The notes: generated from the letters alone by a model not told the origin. DNA of 64,000 bases from Candidatus Eiseniibacteriota bacterium (GCA_963762255.1 CAVXKA010000001.1:800001-864000), one strand, 5' to 3'; counted from the stretch's first letter, positions 32,936 to 53,651 are shown. Numbers and translations: made by a program.

Positions 32936-34054
32936 GTGAGGGAGATGGAGCTCTCGGCTGTAGATGTCCGATCGATGCGCAGCACGGACCTCTCATGGCA
33001 GACAATTCGGGACGGCGTCGAGGTTTCGTTCCTCCCGCGGCGAATGGTTCAGGAGAGTGGCTTCACTCGTGGGGCTGTGCTCTCCTGGCGATGGGATCGA
33101 GATCTGTTCGAAGGCCGCTCGCGCAATATTGCGCTCGCGCTCCATCATGCAATGCGTACGGAGATTGAGTGGCTGTTCCTGGATCTGGTCACCGTCGATC
33201 AGTCCCTCAGCTCGGAAGAACTGCTCGAGAAAGTCTCGGCGCTCGCGACGCTCTACAAGAAAGTCCCCGTCTTTGTCGCCGGCGACCGTCCCGACGTTCC
33301 GCAGAGCGAATGGGCAAGAACGTTCAGGCGCCCTTGGCTACTCTATGAGGCTAGATCCTACGCGGTGAATCCCGCAGGAGTTACATATCTCGGCTACCGC
33401 CATCGTCTATCGTCCGAGGTCGCTCCGGTCGCGTTCGCTCCCGAGCTCCAAGCCATCAGGGAGGCCGGGTTCGCCATCTACGTTTTCTATGCCATATGGG
33501 GGTACATCGGGATGCAGGACCCCGGAGATTTCAGATTCATCCTGCGGCCCTTCTATTCGCTATTCACCTACCTCCACGAGAGATTGACCAGGGACGATTT
33601 CCTCTTTTCTGTGTTTCTCGTCTGCGCGATCCACGAGCGAACGCAGACAGTCGAAGGTTGGGACGGACCGTTCGACAATGGCTATCGAATAAACTTCCAC
33701 GACATCCGCTTCGAATCGCGGTCCTTCGACCGGTTTTCGATTGGCAAACACGAATCTGCGCGCTTCTATGAGACGCTCCGAACGATCAGCCTAGACGGCC
33801 ATCCCGTCGCCGAATGGAGGAACAAGATGACGAGCAGCTTGGACCGTAACTGGGTCAAAGTTCTGCCCGATGCAGAGCGTTCACGCTTTGATGCGCTCAA
33901 GGTTCCAGACGACGTTCGGCAGGATTACGAAGAGAGAAAGAAGGAACGACTTGCCAGCCTCTTTCTCGACGCGCAGGCGGCCCGGCCACAAGTGCGCCAA
34001 CTAACAGCCTACCTGGATCGCGAAGTGTGGATTCCTTTCGAGCCAGCGGAATGA
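32936..34054 (+). CDS. Cassette 1: HET-domain (PF06985-like, TIR-related) protein
   Basis: AVLSWRW, WLFLDLVTVDQ, ELLEKVSALATLY and FRRPWLLYE occur in the order of the HET blocks ALSYxW, LWIDxxCIxQ, EKxxQVxxMxxIY and RxWxxQE. Confidence 0.7.
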   Translation: MREMELSAVDVRSMRSTDLSWQTIRDGVEVSFLPRRMVQESGFTRGAVLSWRWDRDLFEGRSRNIALALHHAMRTEIEWLFLDLVTVDQSLSSEELLEKVSALATLYKKVPVFVAGDRPDVPQSEWARTFRRPWLLYEARSYAVNPAGVTYLGYRHRLSSEVAPVAFAPELQAIREAGFAIYVFYAIWGYIGMQDPGDFRFILRPFYSLFTYLHERLTRDDFLFSVFLVCAIHERTQTVEGWDGPFDNGYRINFHDIRFESRSFDRFSIGKHESARFYETLRTISLDGHPVAEWRNKMTSSLDRNWVKVLPDAERSRFDALKVPDDVRQDYEERKKERLASLFLDAQAARPQVRQLTAYLDREVWIPFEPAE

Positions 34055-34111: not shown

Positions 34112-34197
34112 GCCGAACAAAGCGCTGGAGCCGACGGCATGAATTTCGGTGATTATCGCAGCCTGCAGTGGGCCGCGGCTCAGCGCCAACGTTAGAT
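34112..34197 (+). repeat. attC site 1
   Basis: GCCGAAC-AAAGCGCTGGAGCCGACGGC...GCCGCGGCTCAGCGCCAAC-GTTAGAT. Confidence 0.9.
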
Positions 34198-35044
34198 GGA
34201 GAAGACTGGAAGGGTGAATCATTCTGTGCAGTCGGGGCCGTGTATCTACTGTAGAACGATCGATGCCCCATTCACCTCTGAGGAACACGTAGTTCCGGAA
34301 TCCCTCGTCGGGGATGAGCTCATTCTGCCCAGAGGCATGGTGTGCGATGTATGCAACTCGGGCGCGCTATCTGACTTGGACAACTGCCTCCAGAACTCGC
34401 CGCTTCTGGGTCTTCACCGCGTACTCTATGGCCCTGGCTTCACCAAGCAGGGCAAGAGACCGATCGCAAATTTCCAGAACGCCTTCCTCTCTCGTCACGG
34501 CGATACTCACATTCAGCTTCGTCCCAAGGACCGGACGGGGGGGATCCGCGACTTTGAGGAACTTCCAGATGGCACCTCACGATTCTCCGTTTCCCTGAAG
34601 AGGCACTTTGACCATGTCAAGTTCAGCAGGGCCCTTCAAAAGATCGGGCTCGGAGCATTCGCCCTCAAGAAGGGGCGGGATCCAGCACTAGATCAACGAT
34701 TCGATACGGCGCGCAGCTTCATACTGCAGGGAGGCACATTCCCAAGTTCGTGGATCCTGGCACTGTCCGGTCCCCCAGCGCCCGGCGGATCGCTCAGGTT
34801 CTGGGATGTCCATCCGCTCGCGCTGTTCGCGTTGGAGGTATCCGGTGTGCGGATGGGATTCCCTCTGGAGCCCACGCCACGATTGGAGGATCTCCCAGTC
34901 GCTGGACTGTTGACCAATGTCGCCTGGTTCCCGATGGATGGGGAGCACGATGACTTTGTAGTCTCGAGCCCATCGGTCGGAGCCGGGAATCAGGACGGCC
35001 CATCTAACGGGCCGCTGCAGCCGCCGCCCGCTCCTGAGGAGTAA
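34196..35044 (+). CDS. Cassette 2: HNH endonuclease (HNH_5-like)
   Basis: CIYC...SEEHVVPESL...VCDVCN...LD. The C-terminus reads into attC2. Confidence 0.82.
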   Translation: MEKTGRVNHSVQSGPCIYCRTIDAPFTSEEHVVPESLVGDELILPRGMVCDVCNSGALSDLDNCLQNSPLLGLHRVLYGPGFTKQGKRPIANFQNAFLSRHGDTHIQLRPKDRTGGIRDFEELPDGTSRFSVSLKRHFDHVKFSRALQKIGLGAFALKKGRDPALDQRFDTARSFILQGGTFPSSWILALSGPPAPGGSLRFWDVHPLALFALEVSGVRMGFPLEPTPRLEDLPVAGLLTNVAWFPMDGEHDDFVVSSPSVGAGNQDGPSNGPLQPPPAPEE

Positions 35045-35104
35045 GCTGCGGCTTGGAAGGGCGACCGGTTGTCGCGGGCGCGGCTGACCGGCAGCACGTT
35101 AGGC
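35002..35104 (+). repeat. attC site 2 (long family)
   Basis: ATCTAAC-GGGCCGCTGCAGCCGCCGCCCGC...GCGGGCGCGGCTGACCGGCAGCAC-GTTAGGC. Confidence 0.9.
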
Positions 35105-35142
35105 GAACGAAGATGGCGCAGCGAGTCAACGGCGAGAAACCA

Positions 35143-38100
35143 ATGAACCAAGCTGACCGCGTTTTCATCAGCTACAGCCACCGGGGAAGCGGACCGGGTT
35201 GGAAGGCACGGATGGTGCGGCATCTTGGTGTCTTTGAGCGACATCATCTCCTCGATGTGTGGCAGGACGGCAAAATCCGTGTCAGTTCCTACTGGGACGA
35301 CGACATCACACAGGCCATGAGCAGTGCCCGACTAGCAGTTGTGCTGCTTACCCCTGAGGCTCTCGAATCCCAGTACATCCTTGATAAGGAATTCCCATTC
35401 CTCCGTGAGTGCCAGCAGCGCGACAGGCTCTCGGTGTTCCCGGTGATCTGCGAACCGTGCGACTGGAAAGTCCATGATTGGTTACGAGCGACTCAGGCAC
35501 CGAATGAATCGAATCCCCTCTCACCACTCACCGAAGCCGCGCAAGACCGCATCTTCCGCCAACTCGCCACGGACATCGCGACAGAACTAAGCCGCGTTGC
35601 GTTTGCCGAGTTGCCGAAGTTTGACCAGCCGCCTGCACCCGAACACATCTACCTCGAGAAGTTTCCACTCACCCGTGGCCCCGGGCTGCGTGAGGAGAAA
35701 CTCATTGGCCGGGAACAGGAACTCGCCCTCCTCGACCTCGCCTTCGCCCAGCCGCACACCGCAATCGTCTCTCTCGTCGCCTGGGGCGGCGTGGGCAAGA
35801 CCATGCTCGTCCAGCACTGGCTCCAGCACCTCCAACGCGAGGGCTGGTTAGGCGCGCAGCGCGTCTATGCGTGGAGCTTCTACAGCCAGGGCACCAAGGA
35901 AGACCGGCAAGCCTCCGAAGACACCTTCCTCGCCCACGCCCTCGAATGGTTCGGCGTCCAATGCGAGCCGACCCTCTCGCCGTGGGACAAAGGACGCGTG
36001 CTCGCCGACGCCGTCGCCCGGGAACGCACGCTGCTCGTCCTCGACGGCATCGAGCCGCTCCAGTATCCGCCCGGCCCGATGGGCGGCCAACTCCGCGCCC
36101 CCGGCGTGCAGAGCCTGTTGAAACACCTGACGCGCAACGCGAACTCAGCCGATCAACACGGCCTCTGCCTTGTCACGACGCGCGAACCGCTCGCCGACCT
36201 CGCCGATTTCCAGCGGCGCGAGGCTTCGCCGTGGGGCAGCGTGCTCCGCGTGGACCTTGGCAACCTCACCGCTGAAGCCGGCGCCGCGCTGCTCCATCAC
36301 GCAGGAGCCAGCCGGGCTGGCGCGGCGGAGATCAAACCTGACGACAAGGAACTGATTGCCGCCAGCCGCGAAGTGGACGGTCACGCCCTCACGCTCAATC
36401 TGTTGGGCCGCTTCCTCGCCCGCGCGCACGTCGGCGACATCCGCCGCCGCGACTTGGTGAAATTCGAGGAAGCCGACCGCGAGGAACAAGGCGGCACAAC
36501 CTTCAAGATGCTCGCCGCCTTCGAGAACTGGTTTGCCAACGAAGGCGACATTGAAGCACGAGCCTTAACCATCCTTCGGCTTCTCGCCCTGTTCGACCGT
36601 CCAGCGGATGCGGGCTGCATGGGCGCTTTGCGAAAGTCTCCCATCATCTCCGGGTTGACCGAGCCTCTGTTCACGCTGAGACGGGATTCAAATACCGGTC
36701 AGATGAATGAGAAGCCGCTTTCTGACAAAGCGTGGAATGATGCGATTCATTTTCTTGTCGACTTTGACCTCGTAACCGTGATCGCGTTCGAACGACCTCA
36801 GATTCGAGGCTTCAATATGTTCACAGCACAAGTGATGAGATTCTACGGTCCGAACGCCGGCGTAGTGGAAGAGTTTGACACGGCTTCTGCTGTCCCTGCA
36901 AATGGCAGTTACGTTCTGGAGGCTCACCCTCTCATTCGTGAACACTTTGAGCGGCGTTTACGAATTCAAAGTCCGCACTCTTACAGGAACGGACATTCGC
37001 GCGTGTTCGAGTTCCTCAAGCAATCCGTGCCCTATTGGCCGGAAGGAATCCACAACTTGGTACCGCTCTATCAAGCCGTCTTCCACGGCTGCCGGGCTGG
37101 GGAGTATGACGATGCACGCGAACAGGTGTTCCGGGATCGCATCCTTCGCGCTACTTCCGGGCCGTGCGCGAATTACAGCACTTTTTCGCTCGGGGCTTCC
37201 GACGCGGATCTTTCTGCTCTAGCTTGCTTCTTTGAGATAGCTTGGACACGAGCAAGAGAGGCATTCTCCGATCAGGCAGTAGCTTGGATTCTCAACGAGA
37301 CAGCTTTTCGCCTTCGCGCTATTGGTAGGATAACAGAGGCCGTCGAACCGTTGCGTGCGGCTGTCGAAGCGTCCGCAAGGTTGAGCGACTGGAGTAACGC
37401 GGCGCTTGATGCTGGCAATTTGAGTGAAGTTCACCTTGTCTCGGGAGACGTAGCCGCAGCCGTAATGGCAGCGGATCTCTCCGTCCAATACGCCGACCGA
37501 GCAAAGGACAAACCTCCAACAACGAACGAATCACCGTATTGGCCGATCCACATGCGCGCCCGACTCGCCGCCGCGTTCTTTCAATCCGGGAAGAGTGAAG
37601 ATGCACGGATCTTGTTTGAACAAGCGGAGGAAGGACAGCGGCGTGCTCAGCCCGAATTCCCCGTGCTTTACTCCGTGTCCGGCTTCCGATATTGCGAGTT
37701 CTATCTTCACGGGCCTGAACGCGCTGCTTGGAGCACTACACTTCCAGGTCTCGATTTCGTCTGGGAATCTGCGGATATGTCGTTGACGTGGACAGCTCAG
37801 AAGCGGGCACGCCAAGCACTTCATTGGCTGGAGCAATTCGGTAGCCGTGGCCTCTTGGACATAGCGCTTGACACCTTAACACTAGATCGTTCGGTATTGT
37901 ACCGGACGGTGGTTGATCACTATTCAGCGCCAAACCGCGAAATCGCACTACGCATGCTGCAGGCGGCACTACCTCCGATGCATCATCAGTTCACACTGAT
38001 TGTCGATGCTTTCAGACAGTGTCGCTCGCAAGAATTCATCCCTTTAGCCCTGTTGACGCGCGCTTGGGTGCGGTGTTTGAAAGGAGACACTGCTGGTTCC

Positions 38101-38328
38101 AAAGTCGACTTGGACGAAGCGTGGGACATTGCCGAGCGCGGGCCGATGCGGCTGCACATGGCCGACATCCACCTTTACCGCGCCCGGCTCTTCTTCCGCG
38201 AGAAACCTTACCCGTGGAATTCTTCGCAGGACGACCTCGCCGCCGCCGAGAAACTCGTCAACGACTGCGGGTACCACCGCCGTGACGAAGAACTCGCCGA
38301 CGCCAAGCGCGCCATCCTAGGAGCATGA
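35143..38328 (+). CDS. Cassette 3: TIR-STAND NTPase-helical/TPR-like repeat protein (NLR-like)
   Basis: TIR VFISYSH...VWQD...SQYILDKEFP. LIGREQEL, Walker A AWGGVGKT, Walker B LLVLDGIE, VTTR, GHALTL. Helical C-terminus. Alternative start at 35113. Confidence 0.85.
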   Translation: MNQADRVFISYSHRGSGPGWKARMVRHLGVFERHHLLDVWQDGKIRVSSYWDDDITQAMSSARLAVVLLTPEALESQYILDKEFPFLRECQQRDRLSVFPVICEPCDWKVHDWLRATQAPNESNPLSPLTEAAQDRIFRQLATDIATELSRVAFAELPKFDQPPAPEHIYLEKFPLTRGPGLREEKLIGREQELALLDLAFAQPHTAIVSLVAWGGVGKTMLVQHWLQHLQREGWLGAQRVYAWSFYSQGTKEDRQASEDTFLAHALEWFGVQCEPTLSPWDKGRVLADAVARERTLLVLDGIEPLQYPPGPMGGQLRAPGVQSLLKHLTRNANSADQHGLCLVTTREPLADLADFQRREASPWGSVLRVDLGNLTAEAGAALLHHAGASRAGAAEIKPDDKELIAASREVDGHALTLNLLGRFLARAHVGDIRRRDLVKFEEADREEQGGTTFKMLAAFENWFANEGDIEARALTILRLLALFDRPADAGCMGALRKSPIISGLTEPLFTLRRDSNTGQMNEKPLSDKAWNDAIHFLVDFDLVTVIAFERPQIRGFNMFTAQVMRFYGPNAGVVEEFDTASAVPANGSYVLEAHPLIREHFERRLRIQSPHSYRNGHSRVFEFLKQSVPYWPEGIHNLVPLYQAVFHGCRAGEYDDAREQVFRDRILRATSGPCANYSTFSLGASDADLSALACFFEIAWTRAREAFSDQAVAWILNETAFRLRAIGRITEAVEPLRAAVEASARLSDWSNAALDAGNLSEVHLVSGDVAAAVMAADLSVQYADRAKDKPPTTNESPYWPIHMRARLAAAFFQSGKSEDARILFEQAEEGQRRAQPEFPVLYSVSGFRYCEFYLHGPERAAWSTTLPGLDFVWESADMSLTWTAQKRARQALHWLEQFGSRGLLDIALDTLTLDRSVLYRTVVDHYSAPNREIALRMLQAALPPMHHQFTLIVDAFRQCRSQEFIPLALLTRAWVRCLKGDTAGSKVDLDEAWDIAERGPMRLHMADIHLYRARLFFREKPYPWNSSQDDLAAAEKLVNDCGYHRRDEELADAKRAILGA

Positions 38329-38410
38329 ACCGTCATCAGGGACCTACATCTGGGAATAGGGGGCGCCGTAGATCGAAAGGTCGGCAATGGCTGCGTGTTC
38401 GGGAGCGTGC

Positions 38411-38470
38411 GCCGAACAACAGCATGCAGCGGACGGCGCTGCGCGCCGCAGCTGATGCTGGGCGTCAGGC
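38411..38470 (+). repeat. attC site 3 (short; R' mutated to GTCAGGC)
   Basis: GCCGAAC-AACAGCATGCAGCGGACGGCGCTGCGCGCCGCAGCTGATGCTGGGC-GTCAGGC. Confidence 0.85.
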
Positions 38471-38483
38471 GTCACGAATAGGC

Positions 38484-39431
38484 ATGGTGATGGCTCCATA
38501 TCAGGTGTTTGTCTCTTTCAAGAATCTTGATGGCCATGGAAACCCGACGCCGGACAGCGTGTTGGCGGCGACTGTCAGTGGTTTTCTCGCCAGTCATGGC
38601 CTTCGCGTGTTCTTCAGCAATCAGTCTCTCGAGAAGCTTGGAACAGCCGCCTACAAGAAGGCGATAGACGATGCCCTTGACGCTTGTTCGGTGCTAGTCG
38701 CCGTCGGGACCTCGGCCAATAACCTACAATCGCCGTGGGTCCAGTATGAATGGGACAGCTTCTATAACGACCTTTTGAGCGGCTTGTGGCCTCACAAACG
38801 GCTCTTCTCCTATGTCAAGGACATAGTACCGCGCGACCCGCCTCGTTCGCTGCGACAGAATCAGTCGATCGTTCACATCGACGCGACTGATGCGTCATTG
38901 ACGTCTCTGCTCAACTTCGTTCGCAACGCACTGCCAGAAGACGGTTCAGGTCCCCAGGCAGCTGCTCAAGACTTAACGGACGAGACGATCGCGTCACTAT
39001 CGCTGGTAGAGAGGCTGGCTCTGGGCATCTTGTGCTGGGATACCGAGACACCAGACGTCCTGCACGAGTCGATCCTTCCTCTCTGGCATTCTCTCCCGCG
39101 GCTGGCTCGTCGTGCATATTCGGACTACGCCGACCAAGTCATCGATCAATTCGGCGCGCTGGGGTACGACTTGGTGCCTACGGACGACAGATCCTCGGTG
39201 TTTCGCTTGACCCCGGATCAAGTGGAAGCACTCGCGGGGTACGAACACATGGAGTGGCTTGCCAGGAAAGCGGCTTTCGGGTGGCAGTATGGTGGCTGGA
39301 TGGACAAGCCAAACAAACGCAGCCCGTTTCTGGCTCCCTGGTCCGATCTTCCAGACCGGGCAAAGCAACTTGCTTTGACGGACGTTCGGTCACTTCCGGT
39401 TGCTCTTGCGGCGGCCTGGTTGCGGTTATGA
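38484..39431 (+). CDS. Cassette 4: TIR domain fused to RyR (ryanodine receptor repeat) domain
   Basis: QVFVSFKN...IDDALD...SPWVQYEW (TIR). LAGYEHMEW...GWQYG...RSPFLAPWSDLP (RyR), preceded by the half repeat LPLWHSLP...LGYDL. Confidence 0.82.
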   Translation: MVMAPYQVFVSFKNLDGHGNPTPDSVLAATVSGFLASHGLRVFFSNQSLEKLGTAAYKKAIDDALDACSVLVAVGTSANNLQSPWVQYEWDSFYNDLLSGLWPHKRLFSYVKDIVPRDPPRSLRQNQSIVHIDATDASLTSLLNFVRNALPEDGSGPQAAAQDLTDETIASLSLVERLALGILCWDTETPDVLHESILPLWHSLPRLARRAYSDYADQVIDQFGALGYDLVPTDDRSSVFRLTPDQVEALAGYEHMEWLARKAAFGWQYGGWMDKPNKRSPFLAPWSDLPDRAKQLALTDVRSLPVALAAAWLRL

Positions 39432-39468: not shown

Positions 39469-39537
39469 GCCTAACACGGCATGCACCAGGCGGCGCGCGG
39501 GGTACAGCGCGCCGCTGGTGATGCCGAGCCGTTAGGC
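39469..39537 (+). repeat. attC site 4
   Basis: GCCTAAC-ACGGCATGCACCAGGCGGCGCGC...GCGCGCCGCTGGTGATGCCGAGCC-GTTAGGC. Confidence 0.9.
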
Positions 39538-39567
39538 AGGCAATGGGGCTTGGTTACGGTGGCTGGA

Positions 39568-40035
39568 ATGCGATTCTTTCTAGTCGTCTTGATTGTGGCC
39601 CTGGGGGGATGTGGGTCCGAGTCATCGCCCCAGCAGACTGTGCCGATCCCTGACGTGACAGATGACATGACAGAGGAGTGCGAGTGTCTTGCCGTGGCTC
39701 CCTACTTCTCGGCTTCCTGTGTCGGGATTGCGGGGGCCATGCCGCACATGGTCCCATGCTGGCGCGCGATCGTGGCGCACGCAGACGGGGACGATCACTT
39801 CAGGGAACTTCTCGATCACGCGACGTTGGCTGGGCAGTTGTATGGGCTCGCGGGGTTGTACTTCACGGACCGTAGCGGTTTTGACATGTACGTTCAGCCG
39901 TACCTGGCAAGCACTGACAGCGTCCGCACGTTCGAAGGTTGCATCATCCGTCGTGTCGAGGTACGGGAACTCATGGGGGGGTTCCTGAATGGAACGACGC
40001 CAGCGGCCCTGCAGTCACTGGAGTGTCCATTCTAG
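39568..40035 (+). CDS. Cassette 5: hypothetical lipoprotein
   Basis: Lipobox MRFFLVVLIVALGGC. GQLYGLAGLY and GCII motifs. Confidence 0.7.
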   Translation: MRFFLVVLIVALGGCGSESSPQQTVPIPDVTDDMTEECECLAVAPYFSASCVGIAGAMPHMVPCWRAIVAHADGDDHFRELLDHATLAGQLYGLAGLYFTDRSGFDMYVQPYLASTDSVRTFEGCIIRRVEVRELMGGFLNGTTPAALQSLECPF

Positions 40036-40045
40036 TCAAAGGGCT

Positions 40046-40151
40046 GCCTAACGGGCCGCTGCAGCCGCCGCCCGCTCCCCCCGGGGAGTAGGATAGGGCC
40101 TTGAAGGGTGGCCGGTGGTCCCGGGCGCGGCTGACCGGCAGCACGTAAGGC
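40046..40151 (+). repeat. attC site 5 (long family; R' mutated to GTAAGGC)
   Basis: GCCTAAC-GGGCCGCTGCAGCCGCCGCCCGC...GGGCGCGGCTGACCGGCAGCAC-GTAAGGC. Confidence 0.87.
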
Positions 40152-40229
40152 AACATCGGGCAGTCGCAGTCGGTCTGTCGGGGCCGGAACCGCTGGAAAT
40201 CGCGGGTCAGACTTCGAAGGGAGGGCCGA

Positions 40230-40655
40230 ATGATCGGAGCACTTGTGGCCAGGAAAGCGCTGGCGGGCGCTTTCGATGCGTTGAACCGGCATGATCTGCC
40301 GAAGTTCATGTCGGCCTGGCGGGACGACGGGGTGTTTGTCTATCCCGGCGAAATACCTGAAAGCGGGACCTTTCAGGGCAAGAGCGCCGTCGCAGGCTGG
40401 TTCGGACATTTCTTCGAGCAGTTTCCAGGGATCAGATTCGAGATTCAAGACCTCTGCGTCCGGAACATCTTCGACCTTTCAGGCACCAACGTCGTCGCTG
40501 TGCACTGGAATATCCAGCTTACCAACCGAGAGGGACGTGTAGGCCAAAACAGCGGCGTGACGGTCGTGAACATCAAATACGGCAAGGTCTTCCTCGTGAA
40601 GGATTTCATCTTTGATCTTGGCGACAACTTCAGGCGCAATTGGAGTGCATCGTAG
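40230..40655 (+). CDS. Cassette 6: SnoaL/NTF2-like protein
   Basis: FDALNRHD, GTFQGKSAVAGWF, VVAVHW. GGAGG RBS. Confidence 0.85.
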   Translation: MIGALVARKALAGAFDALNRHDLPKFMSAWRDDGVFVYPGEIPESGTFQGKSAVAGWFGHFFEQFPGIRFEIQDLCVRNIFDLSGTNVVAVHWNIQLTNREGRVGQNSGVTVVNIKYGKVFLVKDFIFDLGDNFRRNWSAS

Positions 40656-40666
40656 CGAGCGCAGCT

Positions 40667-40763
40667 GCGTGACTGGCGTTTGCAGTCCCCGCCCGCTCAT
40701 TGGGAGTGGAATCGGCCAAAGAGCCGGCCGTCGCGCGCGCGGCCGACCGGCAGCACGTTAGAG
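40667..40763 (+). repeat. attC site 6 (long family, degenerate R'')
   Basis: GCGTGAC-TGGCGTTTGCAGTCCCCGCCCGC...GCGCGGCCGACCGGCAGCAC-GTTAGAG. Confidence 0.75.
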
Positions 40764-40770
40764 AGCAGCA

Positions 40771-41484
40771 ATGCCAAGAAGACCTCGACCGATGCGGACA
40801 CGGCGCAGTGAGCACTGGCTCCGTGCTGCCGTGAATAAGCATTCGGAGCCCCTGAATGCACGGGTGCGTACCGTTCTTGGACTTGCGCCCAATGACGCGA
40901 TCCACTGGCTCTCCCCGCTGGCGGATGACGAGTTTGCGGAATACTACGACGAGGCATTTCTCGAGAGGCTCGAGATCAGAGGACTGTCAGTGCCCCTGAG
41001 CGAGTTTTGGCCAGCAGGCGGTCCCAGGTGGGATGGGTTGGCACGCACGAGTTCTGGTGAGCACATCCTGGTTGAGGCCAAGGCATACGTGGAAGAGGCC
41101 GTGGACTACCGCAGCCGAGCCGGGGAATCCTCTCTGATCAAGATCCGCTACGCCTTGGGATTGGCGAAGGAGGCGTTCCGCGCATCGGCCGAAGGATCGT
41201 GGGAGCGGCCCTTCTACCAGTACGCCAACCGTTTGGCGCATCTCCACTTCTTGCGGGGTCTGAATGGAGTGAAGGCGCGTCTTCTCTTCTTGTATTTCGC
41301 CGATGCACCAGATGTTCCCCGGCCCTGTAGCGAGGACCAGTGGATTGGTGCAATCCGGCTGATCAACAAGGTGCTTGGGCTGGGTGAACACCCATACCAA
41401 CCGCATGTTGGACACCTAATATGGAGCGTCCAGGATCTGCTCTCAGACCAGTCGTTACAGCCGCCGCCCGCGCCTGGGGAGTAG
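40771..41484 (+). CDS. Cassette 7: PD-(D/E)XK nuclease-like protein
   Basis: FWPAGGPRWDGL...ILVEAKA...YQYANRL. Confidence 0.7.
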   Translation: MPRRPRPMRTRRSEHWLRAAVNKHSEPLNARVRTVLGLAPNDAIHWLSPLADDEFAEYYDEAFLERLEIRGLSVPLSEFWPAGGPRWDGLARTSSGEHILVEAKAYVEEAVDYRSRAGESSLIKIRYALGLAKEAFRASAEGSWERPFYQYANRLAHLHFLRGLNGVKARLLFLYFADAPDVPRPCSEDQWIGAIRLINKVLGLGEHPYQPHVGHLIWSVQDLLSDQSLQPPPAPGE

Positions 41485-41500
41485 GATCCGCGCTTGAAGG
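41442..41500 (+). repeat. Left part of a long-family attC (degenerate)
   Basis: CTCAGAC-CAGTCGTTACAGCCGCCGCCCGCGCCTGGGGAGTAGGAT...TTGAAGG aligns to the left arm and loop of attC5. Confidence 0.7.
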
Positions 41501-41519
41501 CATGACATCGGAGAGCGCA

Positions 41520-42188
41520 ATGAGGCACTGTGGACCGTGGATAGCAGCTCCTGTGATCTGGTTAGCCCTTTCCGGCCATGCGCCCCCGGTTCTTGGCGGG
41601 GAGTGCACTGAAGGGGAGGACCACTATCTTACGGACATTGAGATCCACGGATCGCAAGCGCACGACGAGAGCTTCCACTGCCTACAATGGACGGCGGCTG
41701 ACTGGAGCAAGTGGGCCGGCCCGATCGCTGGCTCCATGTTCGAGGAGTGCCGACGATCGCCGATTCGTGAACGATTGACCGCGGCATGCACACCGCTGCT
41801 CGCCGACACCGCGCGGGTGACCCTCGAGTGGCGGATCCCTCGGTACCGAGCAGCCGTGTTGCTCGCTTCGTACGGCATACCTCGCGTTGCCGACCAGGAT
41901 ATCTTTGGGATCATCACCGAGGAGATGCGAGGCCGGGGCTCCTTGGGCACGGCGGACTACATGGCGCTGGCGGCCCTTCGAGACCCAAGGACGGTGCAGT
42001 TCCTGGCCGGAGAATTCGACTCTGTCGCCTCGGTGCGTGCCCCGGATCGGCTGGAGGTGATCCGGGACATTCTGAACTGCCTCTACCATGTTCCGGGAGA
42101 TTCAGCGGTCGCTCTTGCGAAGACGATCAGTGAGAGGGAGCGCGATCCCGCGATCAAGGAGAGGGCGGAGAGGGTCATTCATCGGTAG
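41520..42188 (+). CDS. Hypothetical secreted protein with HEAT-like C-terminal helices
   Basis: Signal-like N-terminus, GGAGAG RBS, ALAALRDPRTVQFL. Confidence 0.65.
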   Translation: MRHCGPWIAAPVIWLALSGHAPPVLGGECTEGEDHYLTDIEIHGSQAHDESFHCLQWTAADWSKWAGPIAGSMFEECRRSPIRERLTAACTPLLADTARVTLEWRIPRYRAAVLLASYGIPRVADQDIFGIITEEMRGRGSLGTADYMALAALRDPRTVQFLAGEFDSVASVRAPDRLEVIRDILNCLYHVPGDSAVALAKTISERERDPAIKERAERVIHR

Positions 42189-42190
42189 AA

Positions 42191-42212
42191 CTGGCCGTCG
42201 CGGGCGCGGCTG
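42191..42212 (+). repeat. Right-arm fragment of a long-family attC
   Basis: CTGGCCGTCGCGGGCGCGGCTG matches the attC2/attC6 right arm. The terminal R' is missing. Confidence 0.55.
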
Positions 42213-42237
42213 GGTGACGGAGCGACAAGTACACCCT

Positions 42238-42855
42238 ATGCGACGTTGGTCAATCCTCGTAGCCGGCGTTTCCCAGATCGCCGTGGGCCTGTCTCAGGTG
42301 GCGGCCTTCCCGGCGATCGATTGCTTCCCGGTTGGGCCGTACGGCTTGTCTCAACAGGACTCCAGCGTTGTGTCCGGCGCGTTGAGCCTGGATGGGTGGA
42401 GCCGGATCTGTCTCCAGGTGCGAGATCCCGGCTGGGACGCGACTGATTGCGAATACGTGTACCCCACGGACGTGTTCCGCCTGGCTGATTGTCGGGAGGA
42501 CACTCTTCGCTTGGCTGGCTGCGCCGGCGACTTCGACGGTGACGGGCAGCGGGATGTTGCGCTGCTTGTCAAGCGGATCGGAGACGGTAGCGTTCGAGCC
42601 TTCGTCCGCTTGGCCAAGGGCGATGGTTTGCACACCGTCCAATTGCCGCCGATCATGGACGAGTACGGTTTCGAAAGTGACCCGACGATCCCTCCGGGGC
42701 CCTTCTGCATTCGCAAGCCAGTCTCTGGTACGGTCCATTTCCAAAGCGAATATGGGGATTACACGTACTCGCCGAAGGGAGATCTCTTGGTTCTGGGCTG
42801 GGAGACGTATGCATGGGGCGACACGGGCTTTGTGGTCGTCCACACGGCGGACTGA
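42238..42855 (+). CDS. Hypothetical secreted protein with FG-GAP-like Ca-binding motif
   Basis: Signal-like N-terminus and GDFDGDGQRDVALL. Confidence 0.65.
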   Translation: MRRWSILVAGVSQIAVGLSQVAAFPAIDCFPVGPYGLSQQDSSVVSGALSLDGWSRICLQVRDPGWDATDCEYVYPTDVFRLADCREDTLRLAGCAGDFDGDGQRDVALLVKRIGDGSVRAFVRLAKGDGLHTVQLPPIMDEYGFESDPTIPPGPFCIRKPVSGTVHFQSEYGDYTYSPKGDLLVLGWETYAWGDTGFVVVHTAD

Positions 42856-42938
42856 GTCGATGGCGTGCCACGCGCCATCGGGCGGCTTGCGCCCGGTGCT
42901 ATAGTCGAATCTACCCCATGCCTCTTCGGAGGTCGCTG

Positions 42939-43691
42939 ATGACATGTCCATGTTGCTCGTACGCGATTCGACTGCTCGTCACTTCGCTGGCTCTGATCGG
43001 GGTATCGAGCGTTTCGGCGTGGGCCGGGACCAATCCCAACGCGGTCTTCGCGCTCCACGCCAAGGCCCACACGACCAAGCCCGTGTCCATATGCACGACG
43101 CGGAGCCCGAATAGCGGCACCCCGATCCCGTGCACCAGCTACGTCACCCAATGGCCTCTCGCCACAAGCGCGGATGTCTACCTCGTGGTAGCGCGCGGCG
43201 ATTCGGTGACCGGTATCGTCGGCGCTTCCTGCGGGGTCCAGTACAACCAGGCAGTCGGCATGGGCGTCGATATGCACGGTTGGACGCTGTGCGCCGACTT
43301 GGAGTCCATCAGCGCCGGCCCCAACGGCGGATGGCCGAACTCCGGCGGCGGCAACCGCATGACCTGGGTGGCGTCGACGAACTGCCAGCGGACGGTGGCT
43401 GGCGACCAGGGCGTGCACGCGGTGGCGGGTGCGTTCTACGTCTATGCCTATGGCACGGATGTCCTCAACCTCACGGAAAACAAGAACGTGGCGTTTCCCG
43501 AACTGGCCGTGGCCAACTGCTCCGGCCATACGGACCATCTCCCTTGGGCTCGGGTCGCGTTCGTGACATTCTCGGCGGGCGGTGTACTCGAGGGCTGCAA
43601 TCCCTGCACAGAGCCCAACGCGTCCTGTGAACGACCTGTGCCTGCGCTGCCCACCACCTGGAGCAATCTGAAGCAGAGGTTCGGGGGGTAG
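42939..43691 (+). CDS. Secreted Cys-containing protein with C-terminal PTTWSNLKQRF tail
   Basis: Signal peptide ...VSAWA and GGAGG RBS. Similar to 57155-58486. Confidence 0.78.
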   Translation: MTCPCCSYAIRLLVTSLALIGVSSVSAWAGTNPNAVFALHAKAHTTKPVSICTTRSPNSGTPIPCTSYVTQWPLATSADVYLVVARGDSVTGIVGASCGVQYNQAVGMGVDMHGWTLCADLESISAGPNGGWPNSGGGNRMTWVASTNCQRTVAGDQGVHAVAGAFYVYAYGTDVLNLTENKNVAFPELAVANCSGHTDHLPWARVAFVTFSAGGVLEGCNPCTEPNASCERPVPALPTTWSNLKQRFGG

Positions 43692-44044
43692 GCCGCGCAA
43701 GGACCGAGATGATCACCGGTGGTGGGGTTCGTGACTCTGGCGAGGATGGTAAGCTCACCGCACAATCCGTCTCGCGGAGCGCCTCAATTCACATAGGGCA
43801 GGGCCAGCGCCCGTCGTAACCGGGGGTCGTCATTACTCGCAACGCGCGATAAGTCTCGGGCAGAATCTCGTCTTCCTCAGGCGTTCCTGATCGCGCTGGC
43901 GACCTTCGGTATCATTGCTCTGAGCTTCTTGAGCTTGCGGTCATCCGGTGGTCGGCAGCGCAGATCAGGGTCTTTGCCTATTTCAACAACCTGGTCCTGA
44001 TCGGGGCATTCTTGGGGATGGCGCAGTTCTGACCCAGACACAAG

Positions 44045-44076
44045 AAGGGCCGCCCCCGCGAACGAGGGCGGCCCCT
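44045..44076 (-). terminator. Probable intrinsic terminator
   Basis: Plus-strand hairpin AAGGGCCGCCCCCG-CGAA-CGAGGGCGGCCCCT just downstream of the minus-strand gene ending at 44095. Confidence 0.55.
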
Positions 44077-44094
44077 GACGGCGGTCAAGCCATG

Positions 44095-44805
44095 TCAGCG
44101 ATAGAGGGCCTTGATTCTGCCGAAGGTCGTGGGCTCGGTGGGCACGATGCACTCCTGAATATCGATCGTCGCGGTGTAGATTACGCCGCTGACGACGAGG
44201 GCGGCGTCGCGGTTGTAGATCTGCAGTTGGTTGCTGCCGCAGTGCAGGAGCGAGGTGACATCGACTCCGCCGACCTGAGTTTCCGCGGCGTAGCTGCCGG
44301 TATTGATGCTCGGAGTGACGGCGACACCATTGATATAGACGCCGTCCAGATTGGGACCGCCGTAGATGCCGTCGCCGAGGGCGTCATCGCCCGACCAGCA
44401 GAAGTTCAGGGTCGCGGACTTGATGCAGCAGGTCTGCACGGTGAAGTTCTGACAGTAGAGCGCGGAGGCGGGCGTGCCGACAGGGTCGGTGCCGATCCAG
44501 CGAGCCAGCGGATCGCAGGCGAGCTGCTGGAGCCATGCCCCGTGGGGAGTCATGACGATGGCGGGGCGGCCGGCACAGGCGGCCGCAAAGTCGGCCGCGG
44601 TGAAGGGAAGGGGGGAAAGCGCGGTGCTCCCCACCCCGACCAGCATGTTGATCTGCGGATCGGGGCTACCGATGGGAGCATTGCCGCTGCGCAGGACGAC
44701 GGTCTCCGCCGCCACCGGTGCGGCGCTGCCGAGTGCGAGCACACACAAGCAGGACACCAGGGCGATGCCAAGAACGCGAATCGCATGATCGTTTCGCCTG
44801 AACAT
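44095..44805 (-). CDS. Secreted beta-sandwich-like protein with C-terminal PTTFGRIKALY tail
   Basis: Signal peptide, WSGDD...YING...GSNQL pattern, AGAGG RBS. Confidence 0.78.
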   Translation of the reverse strand: MFRRNDHAIRVLGIALVSCLCVLALGSAAPVAAETVVLRSGNAPIGSPDPQINMLVGVGSTALSPLPFTAADFAAACAGRPAIVMTPHGAWLQQLACDPLARWIGTDPVGTPASALYCQNFTVQTCCIKSATLNFCWSGDDALGDGIYGGPNLDGVYINGVAVTPSINTGSYAAETQVGGVDVTSLLHCGSNQLQIYNRDAALVVSGVIYTATIDIQECIVPTEPTTFGRIKALYR

Positions 44806-45068
44806 GATGAGACCTCTTTGGGTGGGGTTTGATTGGATCGAACGGGAGCGACGCAAATAGACGACAGGAAGAGCCGACTCAGTTGCAAACAGGACTAGTT
44901 TAGTCGTAATTATGTGCGATGGCAAGCTCAAGCAGATGGGCCCGAAATTCTCCCGCCTGCCGGGGGGGCGATTCCGCCCTGATGGGTGCCGCAAGGCGCC
45001 CCGCGACTTCCTGCAATAGCTTCGATATCAATCACTTTCGCTCCCGTAGCGTTTGACGAGAACTCCTG

Positions 45069-45099
45069 TTGACTCGTTAGATGACAAATATTATCATCT
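45069..45099 (+). promoter_or_regulatory. Sigma70-type promoter with overlapping palindromic operator
   Basis: TTGACT-N17-TATCAT. Inverted repeat AGATGACAA-ATA-TTATCATCT at 45079-45099. Confidence 0.6.
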
Positions 45100-45143
45100 T
45101 TACCTGACAGCAGATACGCTTCCCAAGACGAAAGGGGTCCGAC

Positions 45144-45530
45144 ATGCGGATTTCCAAGAACGACGTTCCGGTCAAGATCGATGCTCCGGGCGCCGTCGCC
45201 CGCCAGTTGAAGGACTTCGGCGATGCGACCGGATACGGCAAGATCGGCGGCGAGTACTTCTCGCTTGCTGCAGGAACGGACATCACCCCCCTCCTGCAAG
45301 GGCTCAAGGACGACCTCTGCCAGGCGCCGCACTGGGGCTATCTGTCGAAGGGCGCGCTCACCGTCACCTACGCCGACCGCACCCATGAATCGGTGACCGG
45401 CGGCGATTTGTTCTACTGGCCGCCCGGGCACACGGTGCGCGCGGATGCCGACGCCGAGATCATCCTCTTCAGCCCTCAGCACGAACACAGCCAGGTCATA
45501 GACCACATTCTCGCCAAGATGCAGGGCTGA
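45144..45530 (+). CDS. Cupin domain protein
   Basis: CQAPHWGY...GDLFYWPPGH. Confidence 0.85.
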   Translation: MRISKNDVPVKIDAPGAVARQLKDFGDATGYGKIGGEYFSLAAGTDITPLLQGLKDDLCQAPHWGYLSKGALTVTYADRTHESVTGGDLFYWPPGHTVRADADAEIILFSPQHEHSQVIDHILAKMQG

Positions 45531-51879: not shown

Positions 51880-53568
51880 CTACTTCACGAACAGCATCCG
51901 CCGCGTCTCGTCGAAATGTCCCGCCCGAACGCGATAGAAATACACACCCGCGGGAGACGGAACGCCCGATGCGTCAACGCCGTCCCAGTTGAGTATCGTG
52001 GTGCCGCTGCCGGAGGATCCCTCGTAGCGGCGCACCAATCTCCCGCGGATGTCGAAGATGGAAACCGAGTAGTCGCCTGCTTCCGGCAGATCGAAGGCGA
52101 TGGCGGTGCGCGCGGAGAACGGGTTCGGCGCATTCTGCCTCACCGCGAACGCGACCGGGCGTCCTGGATCACCGGGGCCGACGCCGGTGGTCGCCAGGTA
52201 CTCGAACCCGGTGGCGAGCGTATCGCGCGCGCCTTCCACGTCCACGATCACGTCCACCGGACCGCTCGCGCCCAGCATGGCCTGGGGAAGCGCGCAGGTC
52301 ATGATCGAGTCGCTGGGGCACTGCACGTCGGCGGCCGATGCGCCGCCGAAGGACACCGCGCGCGCGTACGCGGACGAGATTCCGAAGTTCTCACCCCGAA
52401 TGGTGATCACCGTGCCGCCGCCGATCGGGCCCATGTTGGGGGTGACGTCGAACACCTCGGGGGGCATCCACTTGATTGGGTAGCACACTTCGCTGACGCC
52501 CGGCAGCTCCAGACAGAGTGGCTCGCTGCCGCCGGGCACGCCGGGTAGGCCATCCACCACGAACGAGCTATGCCCTCCGTAGCTGAGCTCGCCGACGGGC
52601 ACGCCGCCCACGCTCGTGGAACGCTGCGCGCCGGAGCTGCCGAAGTTCTGCCCCTGGATGGTGAGGCGCACGCCACCTCGCGCGGGCATGAGCGAGGGCT
52701 CAATGCCGGTGATGACCGGTGAATCGTACGTGAAGAGCTTGGGTTGGGATGACGTCGATCCCGCGAACACCACGAGTTCGCCCGCGCCGGGATCATCCTC
52801 CGGCGTCGTGCACACGAGCATCGTCTTCTCTCGGGTGGAGCATGATGCGGGTTTGTTCTTGATCGTCACCGACGCGTCGGGGCCGAAGTTGTCTCCGACG
52901 ATCGTGATGACGGTGCCGCCCGCGGTTGGTGCATTCGGCGGGATGATCGATGACACCAGCGGCGGGTCGAAGTCGAAGGCGAAGCTGTTGGATAGCTGCC
53001 CGCTCACTGCGACTTGCAACGCCACGCGCGTGTTGGCGGTGCCGGCCGGGGTCACGCAAGTGATCATCGAGTGGCTCAGATGCTGCACGTTGCTTCCCGG
53101 CAGGCCGCCGAGCGTGACCGAGGTGGGGGCCGATGCGCGGCCGAAGTCCTGGCCGGTGATCGTGATGAGCACGCCACCCGCTGCGGGCGACGCGCCCGGA
53201 GTGACTAGACTGATGCTCGGCGAGTCGAACGTGAACGGCTCCGGCGGAGAAGATTCTCCGGTCGAGGAAAGCACGACGACATCTCTCGCGCCGGGATCGC
53301 CCTCCGGGCACGTGCAGATGATGCGCGAGAGACCCCAGTCGGTGACCTCGGCGCTCGTGCCGCCCACCGTCACCGTGCCGGCGTCGGCCGCGAAGTCCGA
53401 TCCGAAGATCGTGATCGGGAAGCCGCCGACGGTCGGGCCGTTGGTCGGAGAGATGCCGACGATCGAAGGCGGTGCGGCGTCGGCGGGCGCCACAACAGAC
53501 GGCGCCAGCGAAGCGATGAGAGCGAACGCGAACAGGAACGCGACGCGAGTCGTGACAAAGCGGCGCAT
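51880..53568 (-). CDS. Secreted protein with five IPT/TIG domains and C-terminal FlgD-Ig domain
   Basis: Signal peptide and five P.I..I.P...P..GG..ITI.G..F units. C-terminal QNAPNPF...IFDIRGRLV...WDG...AGVYF. Confidence 0.9.
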   Translation of the reverse strand: MRRFVTTRVAFLFAFALIASLAPSVVAPADAAPPSIVGISPTNGPTVGGFPITIFGSDFAADAGTVTVGGTSAEVTDWGLSRIICTCPEGDPGARDVVVLSSTGESSPPEPFTFDSPSISLVTPGASPAAGGVLITITGQDFGRASAPTSVTLGGLPGSNVQHLSHSMITCVTPAGTANTRVALQVAVSGQLSNSFAFDFDPPLVSSIIPPNAPTAGGTVITIVGDNFGPDASVTIKNKPASCSTREKTMLVCTTPEDDPGAGELVVFAGSTSSQPKLFTYDSPVITGIEPSLMPARGGVRLTIQGQNFGSSGAQRSTSVGGVPVGELSYGGHSSFVVDGLPGVPGGSEPLCLELPGVSEVCYPIKWMPPEVFDVTPNMGPIGGGTVITIRGENFGISSAYARAVSFGGASAADVQCPSDSIMTCALPQAMLGASGPVDVIVDVEGARDTLATGFEYLATTGVGPGDPGRPVAFAVRQNAPNPFSARTAIAFDLPEAGDYSVSIFDIRGRLVRRYEGSSGSGTTILNWDGVDASGVPSPAGVYFYRVRAGHFDETRRMLFVK

Positions 53569-53622
53569 GATGGTTTTCCTCTCAGGGGGACAATGCGGCG
53601 ACCGGGATAAAATAAGACCAAA

Positions 53623-53651
53623 ATAGTAGCTAATACTGGGGCCGGCGTCAA
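53623..53651 (-). promoter_or_regulatory. Sigma70-type promoter for the IPT/TIG gene
   Basis: Minus strand TTGACG-N17-TACTAT. The -35 overlaps the upstream gene's stop codon. Confidence 0.6.

Follow-up and report, generated by a model that had tools for sequence, protein, structure and literature searches.

A divergent HET-like gene family shared by bacteria and Ascomycota, seen from a Candidatus Eiseniibacteriota genome: a possible self-contained immune effector

The stretch of DNA analysed here, referred to below as the window, comprises 64,000 nucleotides of Candidatus Eiseniibacteriota bacterium (GCA_963762255.1, CAVXKA010000001.1:800001-864000) and carries near its centre a gene related to the HET (heterokaryon incompatibility) domain family PF06985 (Table 1). 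This HET-like gene is a real and intact gene of the expressed type, with an alternative in-frame ATG at 32945, nine bases past the GTG. It lies at a fall in G+C content, which is 0.62-0.70 at 28-33 kb and 0.56-0.62 at 33-39 kb. The N-terminal core of its product is very probably a divergent HET domain, and is therefore placed in the TIR / nucleoside-deoxyribosyltransferase branch of the flavodoxin-like fold, within a family of bacteria and Ascomycota. The overall best explanation of the gene, to which a probability of about 0.5 is given, is a self-contained HET-like immune or cell-suicide effector.

Table 1. Features of the HET-like gene and the genes that follow it (positions counted from the first letter of the window; A3, family alignment)
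Feature	Residues	Position	Strand	Description
HET-like gene		32936..34054	+	372 codons, GTG start; 219 homologues; AF2 model pLDDT 94.7, pTM 0.91
N-terminal alpha/beta core, HET/TIR-like part	about 36-160	33041..33415	+	From the AF2 model, VIA and the sub-threshold PF06985 matches of relatives
Block 1, AVLSWRWD	47-54	33074..33097	+	First core strand and next loop
SRN	62-64	33119..33127	+	Start of first helix; S62 100/102, N64 101/102 (A3)
Block 2, LFLDLVTVDQ	80-89	33173..33202	+	Second strand and loop, TIR BB loop by order
Block 3, PVFVAGD	111-117	33266..33286	+	Third strand
Block 4, RRPWLLYE	131-138	33326..33349	+	WxxxE motif, start of helix 133-142
Middle/C-terminal elaboration	about 163-345	33422..33970	+	Five helices (167-231), beta-meander (237-309), three helices (313-342), as modelled
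C-terminal strands	353-367	33992..34036	+	Strands 353-359 and 364-367, as modelled
HNH_5 endonuclease-like gene, 282 aa		34196..35044	+	PF14279 E 2.7e-06, 27.6 bits; 142 bp downstream; context only
TIR-STAND NTPase-TPR-like gene, 1091 aa		35053..38328	+	TIR_2 E 1.4e-08; AAA_16/NACHT weak; PADLOC ThsB-type TIR 2.7e-11; context only
TIR + RyR-domain gene, 368 aa		38325..39431	+	RyR E 4.5e-08; TIR_2 E 2.2e-06; context only

A word-indexed search of 5.8 billion clusters with the window protein as query returned six relatives of 40-95% identity. The window protein and five close relatives, presumably bacterial, were then combined in a profile, which matched 219 of 1.84 billion representatives at E<=1e-3; of these, 163 remain at E<=1e-10 and 106 at E<=1e-30, and most of the 219 are 330-430 aa long and match end to end. 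Longer, fused forms did not turn up, a weak indication in view of a shallow word-indexed search that returned at least six relatives. Three unlabelled members (P0128, P0144 and P0153) carry an N-terminal hydrophobic extension, probably membrane-spanning, ahead of the HET-like core.

The initial annotation had read four sequence blocks in the protein as the HET motifs in their proper order, ending in a terminal glutamate. These blocks coincide with near-invariant columns of a family alignment of 102 sequences (A3), the basis of all residue counts given here, and because of this near-invariance they stand far beyond chance. Block 1 is conserved at S50 (100/102), W51 (98/102), R52 (93/102), W53 (95/101) and D54 (98/101), block 2 at L80 (94/101), D83 (99/101), D88 (84/100) and Q89 (97/100), and block 3 at V112 (95/102), A115 (91/102) and D117 (90/101). 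Block 4 holds R132 and P133 (both 98/101) together with W134 and E138 (both 98/99), of which E138 is a candidate catalytic glutamate. The four-block list itself proved incomplete, as the S62/N64 pair of the SRN motif had gone unlisted. Besides E138 and W134 the near-invariant residues are mostly polar, and the window copy keeps every one of them except at position 116, where it has a glycine instead of the tyrosine found in 95 of 101 sequences.

The relationship to HET is carried by the relatives of the protein. Among 153 related proteins 101 were scanned against Pfam, the 52 omitted being mostly short fragments along with one frameshifted copy; 45 of the 101 match PF06985 at E<=0.1, while every other Pfam family is matched by at most one of them. 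Most of these matches span positions 27-78 of the PF06985 hidden Markov model (HMM), over the LF.D..S.DQ block, and those that begin at HMM positions 3-6 open at the SWRW block. By offset, SWRW of the relatives falls at about positions 5-8 and block 2 at about positions 40-50, and in six of them RPWxxxE lies near position 100, a placement obtained from offset arithmetic and not from a residue-level alignment. The order of the blocks agrees with that of the canonical HET consensus, which has a Trp...Glu block as its last element. The ESM Atlas adds a language-model view of the protein, in which the best cluster (score 0.98, 213 of 256 features) is a 384-aa Ascomycota cluster named 'putative Heterokaryon incompatibility domain-containing protein' and 29 of the 30 matches are PF06985 clusters. 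A fungal member of the family, P0017 from Cladorrhinum samala, is likewise named in UniRef as a heterokaryon incompatibility domain-containing protein. Pfam sets the gathering cut-off of PF06985 at 22.5 bits, and the window protein does not reach it; nor was the cut-off passed in any of the 206 genomes of its phylum or in any of 401 sampled genomes from the phylum of genome G206. The HET identity put forward at first thus stands as kinship and fails as a direct match. The label 'HET block' rests on the relatives and the language-model search because a direct profile match is absent.

A structural model of the protein is in keeping with this placement. A first AlphaFold2 (AF2) run with six sequences gave a mean predicted local distance difference test (pLDDT) value of 54.1 and was set aside in favour of the model based on A3, for which the pLDDT and the predicted template modelling score (pTM) are listed in Table 1. 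The modelled core runs from strand 46-51 through helix 63-74 and strand 79-81 to the loop with D83, D88 and Q89 and to helix 93-108, and then through strand 112-115, an insert of about 17 residues and helix 133-142 with W134 and E138 to strand 149-155. In this model the helix that follows strand 112-115 (helix 133-142) carries E138 (98/99) at its beginning. An earlier study reported that HHpred detects a similarity between HET and TIR along some 100 residues, as far as helix alpha-C (Dyrka et al. 2014), and this is the same region as the HET/TIR-like core of the window protein.

In structural comparisons with VIA the model aligns best with two nucleoside 2-deoxyribosyltransferases (NDTs), 6evs_B (Z 7.4, root mean square deviation (rmsd) 3.4, 123 residues aligned) and 1f8x_A (Z 7.2, rmsd 3.9, 125 residues). 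They are followed by the TIR domain of SARM1 (9hq0_A; Z 6.7, rmsd 3.8, 119 residues) and by the TIR domains of IL-1RAcPb, BcThsB, SpbK, MyD88, EcThsB2, RPS4 and TIRAP (Z 5.6-6.2). A second look, within the top four, gave Z 7.0 for TIR-1, 6.9 for SARM1 and 6.7 for BcThsB. TIR chains overall score Z 5.6-7.0 over 111-139 aligned residues, and unrelated flavodoxin-like proteins score alike. On the predicted model, a flavodoxin-like fold class appears secure, whereas the specific assignment of the core to TIR/NDT is plausible but not proven, because the Z scores are middling and other flavodoxin-like proteins reach them too. A homodimer prediction returned a score of 0.00 against a mark of 0.42 and gives no verdict on self-association.

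Neither the protein as a whole nor its part past about residue 160 matches Pfam, NCBIfam or PADLOC at E<=1, and the C-terminal region is thus as unrecognised as first described. It is nonetheless conserved within the family, with D198 (87/93) and a D221-x-L223 pair (89/92 and 90/92) in the elaboration and P351 (78/81) before the last strands. When the 120-140-residue TIR and NDT chains are aligned to the model they cover residues from about 45 to 367-370, and this reach suggests that the C-terminal strands complete the alpha/beta core by rejoining its sheet. If the strands do rejoin the core, the C-terminal part would be integrated with it, and this suggests an argument against a separable sensor module. 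The idea of a C-terminal sensor finds backing in nothing beyond the variability of the region. Nor is the protein a fungal domain joined to a bacterial C-terminal novelty, as had been supposed: the profile of the window protein and its five relatives matches the fungal proteins P0038 at positions 9-369, P0031 at 12-359 and P0017 at 49-364 of 393, and the whole 370-aa protein is homologous to Ascomycota proteins; the C-terminal region is therefore no bacterial addition. A search of the ESM Atlas with residues 206-372 gave only unnamed Ascomycota clusters and a lead to DUF8212 at 0.89. DUF8212 was rejected for the C-terminal part, no match to it having been obtained in the Pfam scan of the 101 relatives. 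The structural lists were taken up by matches of the core and gave no fold for the middle and C-terminal part.

Fungal members of the family are known by name from Cladorrhinum, Alternaria, Leptodontidium, Monosporascus and Trichoderma, and by context from two contigs, L011 with a cyclin gene and 62% open reading frame (ORF) cover and L012 with a eukaryotic aspartyl protease gene and a GC of 0.47. The bacterial members comprise the window copy, L002 from a proteobacterial metagenome-assembled genome (MAG), L003 from Silvibacterium and P0021 from a Gammaproteobacteria MAG cluster, with L006, L010, L018 and L020 bacterial by gene content. In a FastTree phylogeny of 90 rows the seven fungal rows (three labelled first, four named later) all fall in one 48-row clade with a support of 98; five of the six bacterial-labelled rows lie in the other, 37-row part, and the sixth, P0021, is placed in the 53-row part, next to the fungal clade but not within it. 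A quick IQ-TREE phylogeny of 45 rows again unites the seven fungal rows in one clade (96-99) and groups the window with L002 and L006 in a clade of 12 rows (100). Both trees are unrooted and most of their rows are unlabelled metagenome proteins; they are compatible with one transfer, whichever its direction, and with old vertical descent. Weak hints of a bacterial origin are that the bacterial part looks deeper and that both fungal contig copies are uninterrupted ORFs. What is new here is a bacterial branch of the HET-like family that is homologous to fungal genes over the whole protein and is found in defence-type islands. Within its own phylum the family occurs in one of 206 genomes, that of the window (G000). 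TIR_2 domains occur in 41 of the 206, with seven matches in the window's genome. Three of these seven lie within 25 kb on contig C3 (406900-431848), which suggests a second TIR-rich island.

Seven distinct bacterial contexts, the window included, were compared, and no neighbour of the HET-like gene is conserved across them, which bears out the description of the gene as stand-alone. In L018 two ThsB-like TIR genes and two caspase-like genes lie within 0.6-3 kb. L002 (same as L004 and L005) has a DpdF/GajB-like helicase of 1692 aa at a distance of 1.9 kb as well as Mu and IS91 transposases, L010 has a type IIG restriction-modification enzyme 3.3 kb away, and L020 has an adjacent phage-type integrase. 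L003, which carries P450 and PALP genes, has no recognisable defence gene, and L006 (same as L007) has no recognisable neighbour at all. Two of these contexts deserve description in their own right. The helicase of L002 (2-5077, minus strand) is a fusion of DEAD/DpdF-like and UvrD/GajB-like helicases adjoined by an SRAP gene and by Mu and IS91 transposase genes. In L018 (5451-11067) the 29%-identical relative sits between ThsB-like TIR genes and Peptidase_C14 genes, with a DUF6236 protein and a helix-turn-helix regulator nearby.

The genes directly downstream of the HET-like gene in the window (Table 1) raise the question of whether it belongs to a system together with the HNH_5, TIR-STAND-TPR and TIR-RyR genes, as an extra effector or as a maker or reader of a nucleotide signal. 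All four genes share a strand and a low-GC stretch. The last three are tightly packed, with a gap of 9 bp between HNH_5 and TIR-STAND-TPR and an overlap of 4 bp between the two TIR genes, no terminator-like site was found between the HET-like and HNH genes, and two TIR genes are found 0.6 kb from the relative in L018 as well. However, TIR-type genes (in the window and L018) are the only neighbour family in common among the seven bacterial contexts, the fungal members L011 and L012 stand in unrelated contexts, and the terminator scan carries little weight because it yielded fewer sites than shuffled sequence (4 versus 5.5). Membership in such a multi-gene system is therefore considered rather improbable. 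In comparisons with genomes of the same family the gene upstream of the HET-like gene was unmatched in 7/7 and the downstream gene gave only matches of <=47% identity.

The three tight genes themselves (34196-39431, plus strand) resemble an undescribed multi-gene defence operon, of which PADLOC sees only the TIR parts, as ThsB-like. Past the TIR genes, at 39481-45506, follow ORFs of 184-313 aa, still within the lower-GC stretch (0.58-0.64) and with no Pfam or PADLOC match. Further along, at 51880-53667 on the minus strand, the window encodes a 595-aa protein with five IPT/TIG repeats and a Por_Secre_tail domain (type IX secretion sorting).

The favoured explanation is that the HET-like protein acts by itself, as an immune or cell-suicide effector kept in a variable, low-GC defence island. 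The neighbourhoods and the patchy distribution of the family point to a defence role, and the chemistry is suggested by the fold-mates, NDTs being glutamate-dependent enzymes of the same fold that act on N-glycosidic bonds. On triggering, NAD+ or a related nucleotide would be split at its N-glycosidic bond in a pocket formed by the invariant polar residues S50/R52/D54, S62/N64, D83/D88/Q89, R132 and E138, the last of which, in the WxxxE motif, would serve as nucleophile or base, and the infected cell would be halted. This functional part, by analogy a suicide effector that may cleave NAD+ or another nucleotide by means of E138, is put forward tentatively and at somewhat short of even odds.

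A protein of TIR/NDT fold might also do another job, in nucleoside or nucleotide metabolism or modification (as a deoxyribosyltransferase-, LOG- or MilB-like N-glycosidase), in the cleavage of nucleic acids or as a non-enzymatic scaffold. The top structural scores belong to the NDTs, with MilB at Z 5.4, metabolic genes flank the L003 and L010 copies, and an adaptor function has been proposed for HET domains, by which further HET domain proteins would be recruited (Dyrka et al. 2014). Against such a job stands a pattern unlike that of housekeeping enzymes, namely presence in one of 206 genomes, location in a low-GC island and immune-type neighbours in four of seven contexts. Fungal HET domains, moreover, induce cell death (PMC10197012), and the near-invariance of polar residues in the aligned sequences would favour catalysis over a pure scaffold. 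On this balance another job is judged unlikely.

A further thought is that the self-contained protein is aimed outwards, as a toxin against other organisms, bacteria or fungi, and not at its own cell. NAD-glycohydrolase-type domains are common in polymorphic toxins, the family is common to fungi and bacteria, and the lower ranks of the structural list include a CD38-like toxin of the type VI secretion system (Z 3.4) and CD38 itself (Z 5.2). Yet the translation, inspected by eye and with no predictor, shows no signal peptide, secretion-system marker or N-terminal trafficking domain, no small immunity gene is conserved downstream across the contexts, and the search described above turned up none of the longer, fused forms, which again is weak evidence. 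A role as a toxin is accordingly held to be very improbable.

Several results weigh against the reading of the gene as a HET-like immune effector. The profile search that had been named as a check on the HET identity gave no match of PF06985 to the protein at E<=1, nor was there one at E<=10 in the whole 4.14-Mb genome, and among the 101 relatives only P0148 (26.6 bits) passes the cut-off. As to the fold, Foldseek with the model found nothing at E<=1e-3 in PDB, nor in BFVD, and a sequence-profile search of PDB with the family gave no matches at E<=10. All VIA Z scores are below 8, 'middling' on the scale of the tool, and generic flavodoxins, FMN reductases and small GTPases also reach Z 6-7. 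The Pfam models TIR, TIR_2 and ThsB_TIR do not match the protein at E<=1. An hhalign comparison, run without secondary structure, of the N-terminal profile with 23 TIR_2 domains from the phylum, the window and L018 was not significant (probability 0.87%, P 0.063, with 8 of 150 column shuffles equalling the real score); in this non-significant alignment SWRWD coincides with the motif of the first strand, and RPW..E with the conserved glutamate column of TIR_2. The relation to TIR that had been claimed at first is hence plausible at the level of a TIR-type fold, with middling scores in the structure comparison, and falls in the TIR_2 profile comparison. As to function, no family of the PADLOC-DB 2.0 defence models matches the protein at E<=1, the defence-type neighbours in four of the seven bacterial contexts come without a background statistic, the genes adjacent to the L003 and L010 copies are metabolic, and tblastn searches of 72,556 plasmids and 50,697 phages returned no homologue. 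According to two recent papers, HET domains as yet have no known biochemical activity (PMC10890737; PMC12881547).

The last of these adverse points is a database copy, 95% identical to the window protein, that is present as two pieces (P0003 and P0127) owing to a frameshift near residue 213. Past the frameshift P0003 follows the frame of the window ORF at 33496-33771 (plus strand), and P0127 corresponds to the final 75 residues. The split reflects either pseudogenisation of the allele of a close strain or an error of assembly. Together with the GC below that of the flanks and the status of the gene as sole copy in a phylum of 206 genomes, it could be taken to mean that the HET-like gene is a horizontally acquired relic that no longer functions in this genome. 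The window copy, however, is intact over its 372 codons and keeps the near-invariant residues except at position 116, and a relic seems scarcely credible.

Pfam lists some bacterial members of PF06985. A search of the open-access literature, with subscription journals and supplementary files lying outside it, brought up no account of a HET-like defence gene from bacteria. The papers found deal with HET as a domain of eukaryotes, mainly of fungi, Dyrka et al. (2014) placing non-fungal HET homologues in other eukaryotes only, and they mention HET genes in bacteria only for endobacteria, where the genes are derived from the host (PMC10197012). The mode of action of HET is called unknown in a paper from 2024 (PMC10890737), and its biochemistry and structure are listed as not determined in one from 2025 (PMC12881547). 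The interest of the HET-like gene lies in the prospect of studying HET biochemistry by experiment. Compact, free of introns and from a family with defence-type neighbourhoods, the bacterial homologue would be a tractable protein for biochemistry and structure determination, and it represents a candidate single-gene defence family that is not in PADLOC 2.0. The furthest-reaching proposal, which must be regarded as doubtful, is that an undescribed and diverse bacterial HET branch functions as a one-gene anti-phage suicide enzyme and that the single Pezizomycotina clade of this family descended from a bacterial gene. If true, HET would join TIR, NLR and gasdermin among the immune modules inherited from prokaryotes, the theme of the bacterial roots of eukaryotic immunity would extend to HET, and HET chemistry would become solvable in Escherichia coli.

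Among known systems the closest comparison is with the fungal HET domains themselves (HET-E, TOL and BH), which have the same block order and in which, as in the window's family, the glutamate of the last block is conserved. Most fungal HET genes are also stand-alone, having no NLR part (PMC10197012). Unlike the fungal domains the HET-like protein lies below PF06985 detection, belongs to a bacterial host and carries a family-specific C-terminal elaboration, and its blocks differ in detail, reading SWRWD, SRN, DxxxxDQ and RPWxxxE. The TIR NAD+ hydrolases and cyclases (SARM1/TIR-1, Thoeris ThsB, SpbK and plant TIRs) share with the modelled protein a flavodoxin-like core and its strand-helix order, have a WxxxE-type motif at the helix after the third strand, and likewise occur beside other bacterial immune genes. 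Unlike in TIR, about 17 residues are inserted between the third strand and the WxxxE helix of the HET-like model and the core is broken by about 190 residues. The NDTs 6evs and 1f8x give the best structural scores. In contrast to these, identity in the structural alignments is only 6-9%, no PDB entry is matched at the sequence-profile level, and the genomic setting and distribution of the HET-like gene are not those of a salvage enzyme. The earlier report of HET-domain genes in bacteria concerns endobacteria of mycorrhizal fungi, whose host-derived HET genes are described as recent acquisitions from the fungal host (PMC10197012). Unlike these, the HET-like gene of the window resides in a free 4.1-Mb genome and belongs to a diverse bacterial branch that stands apart from the fungal clade.

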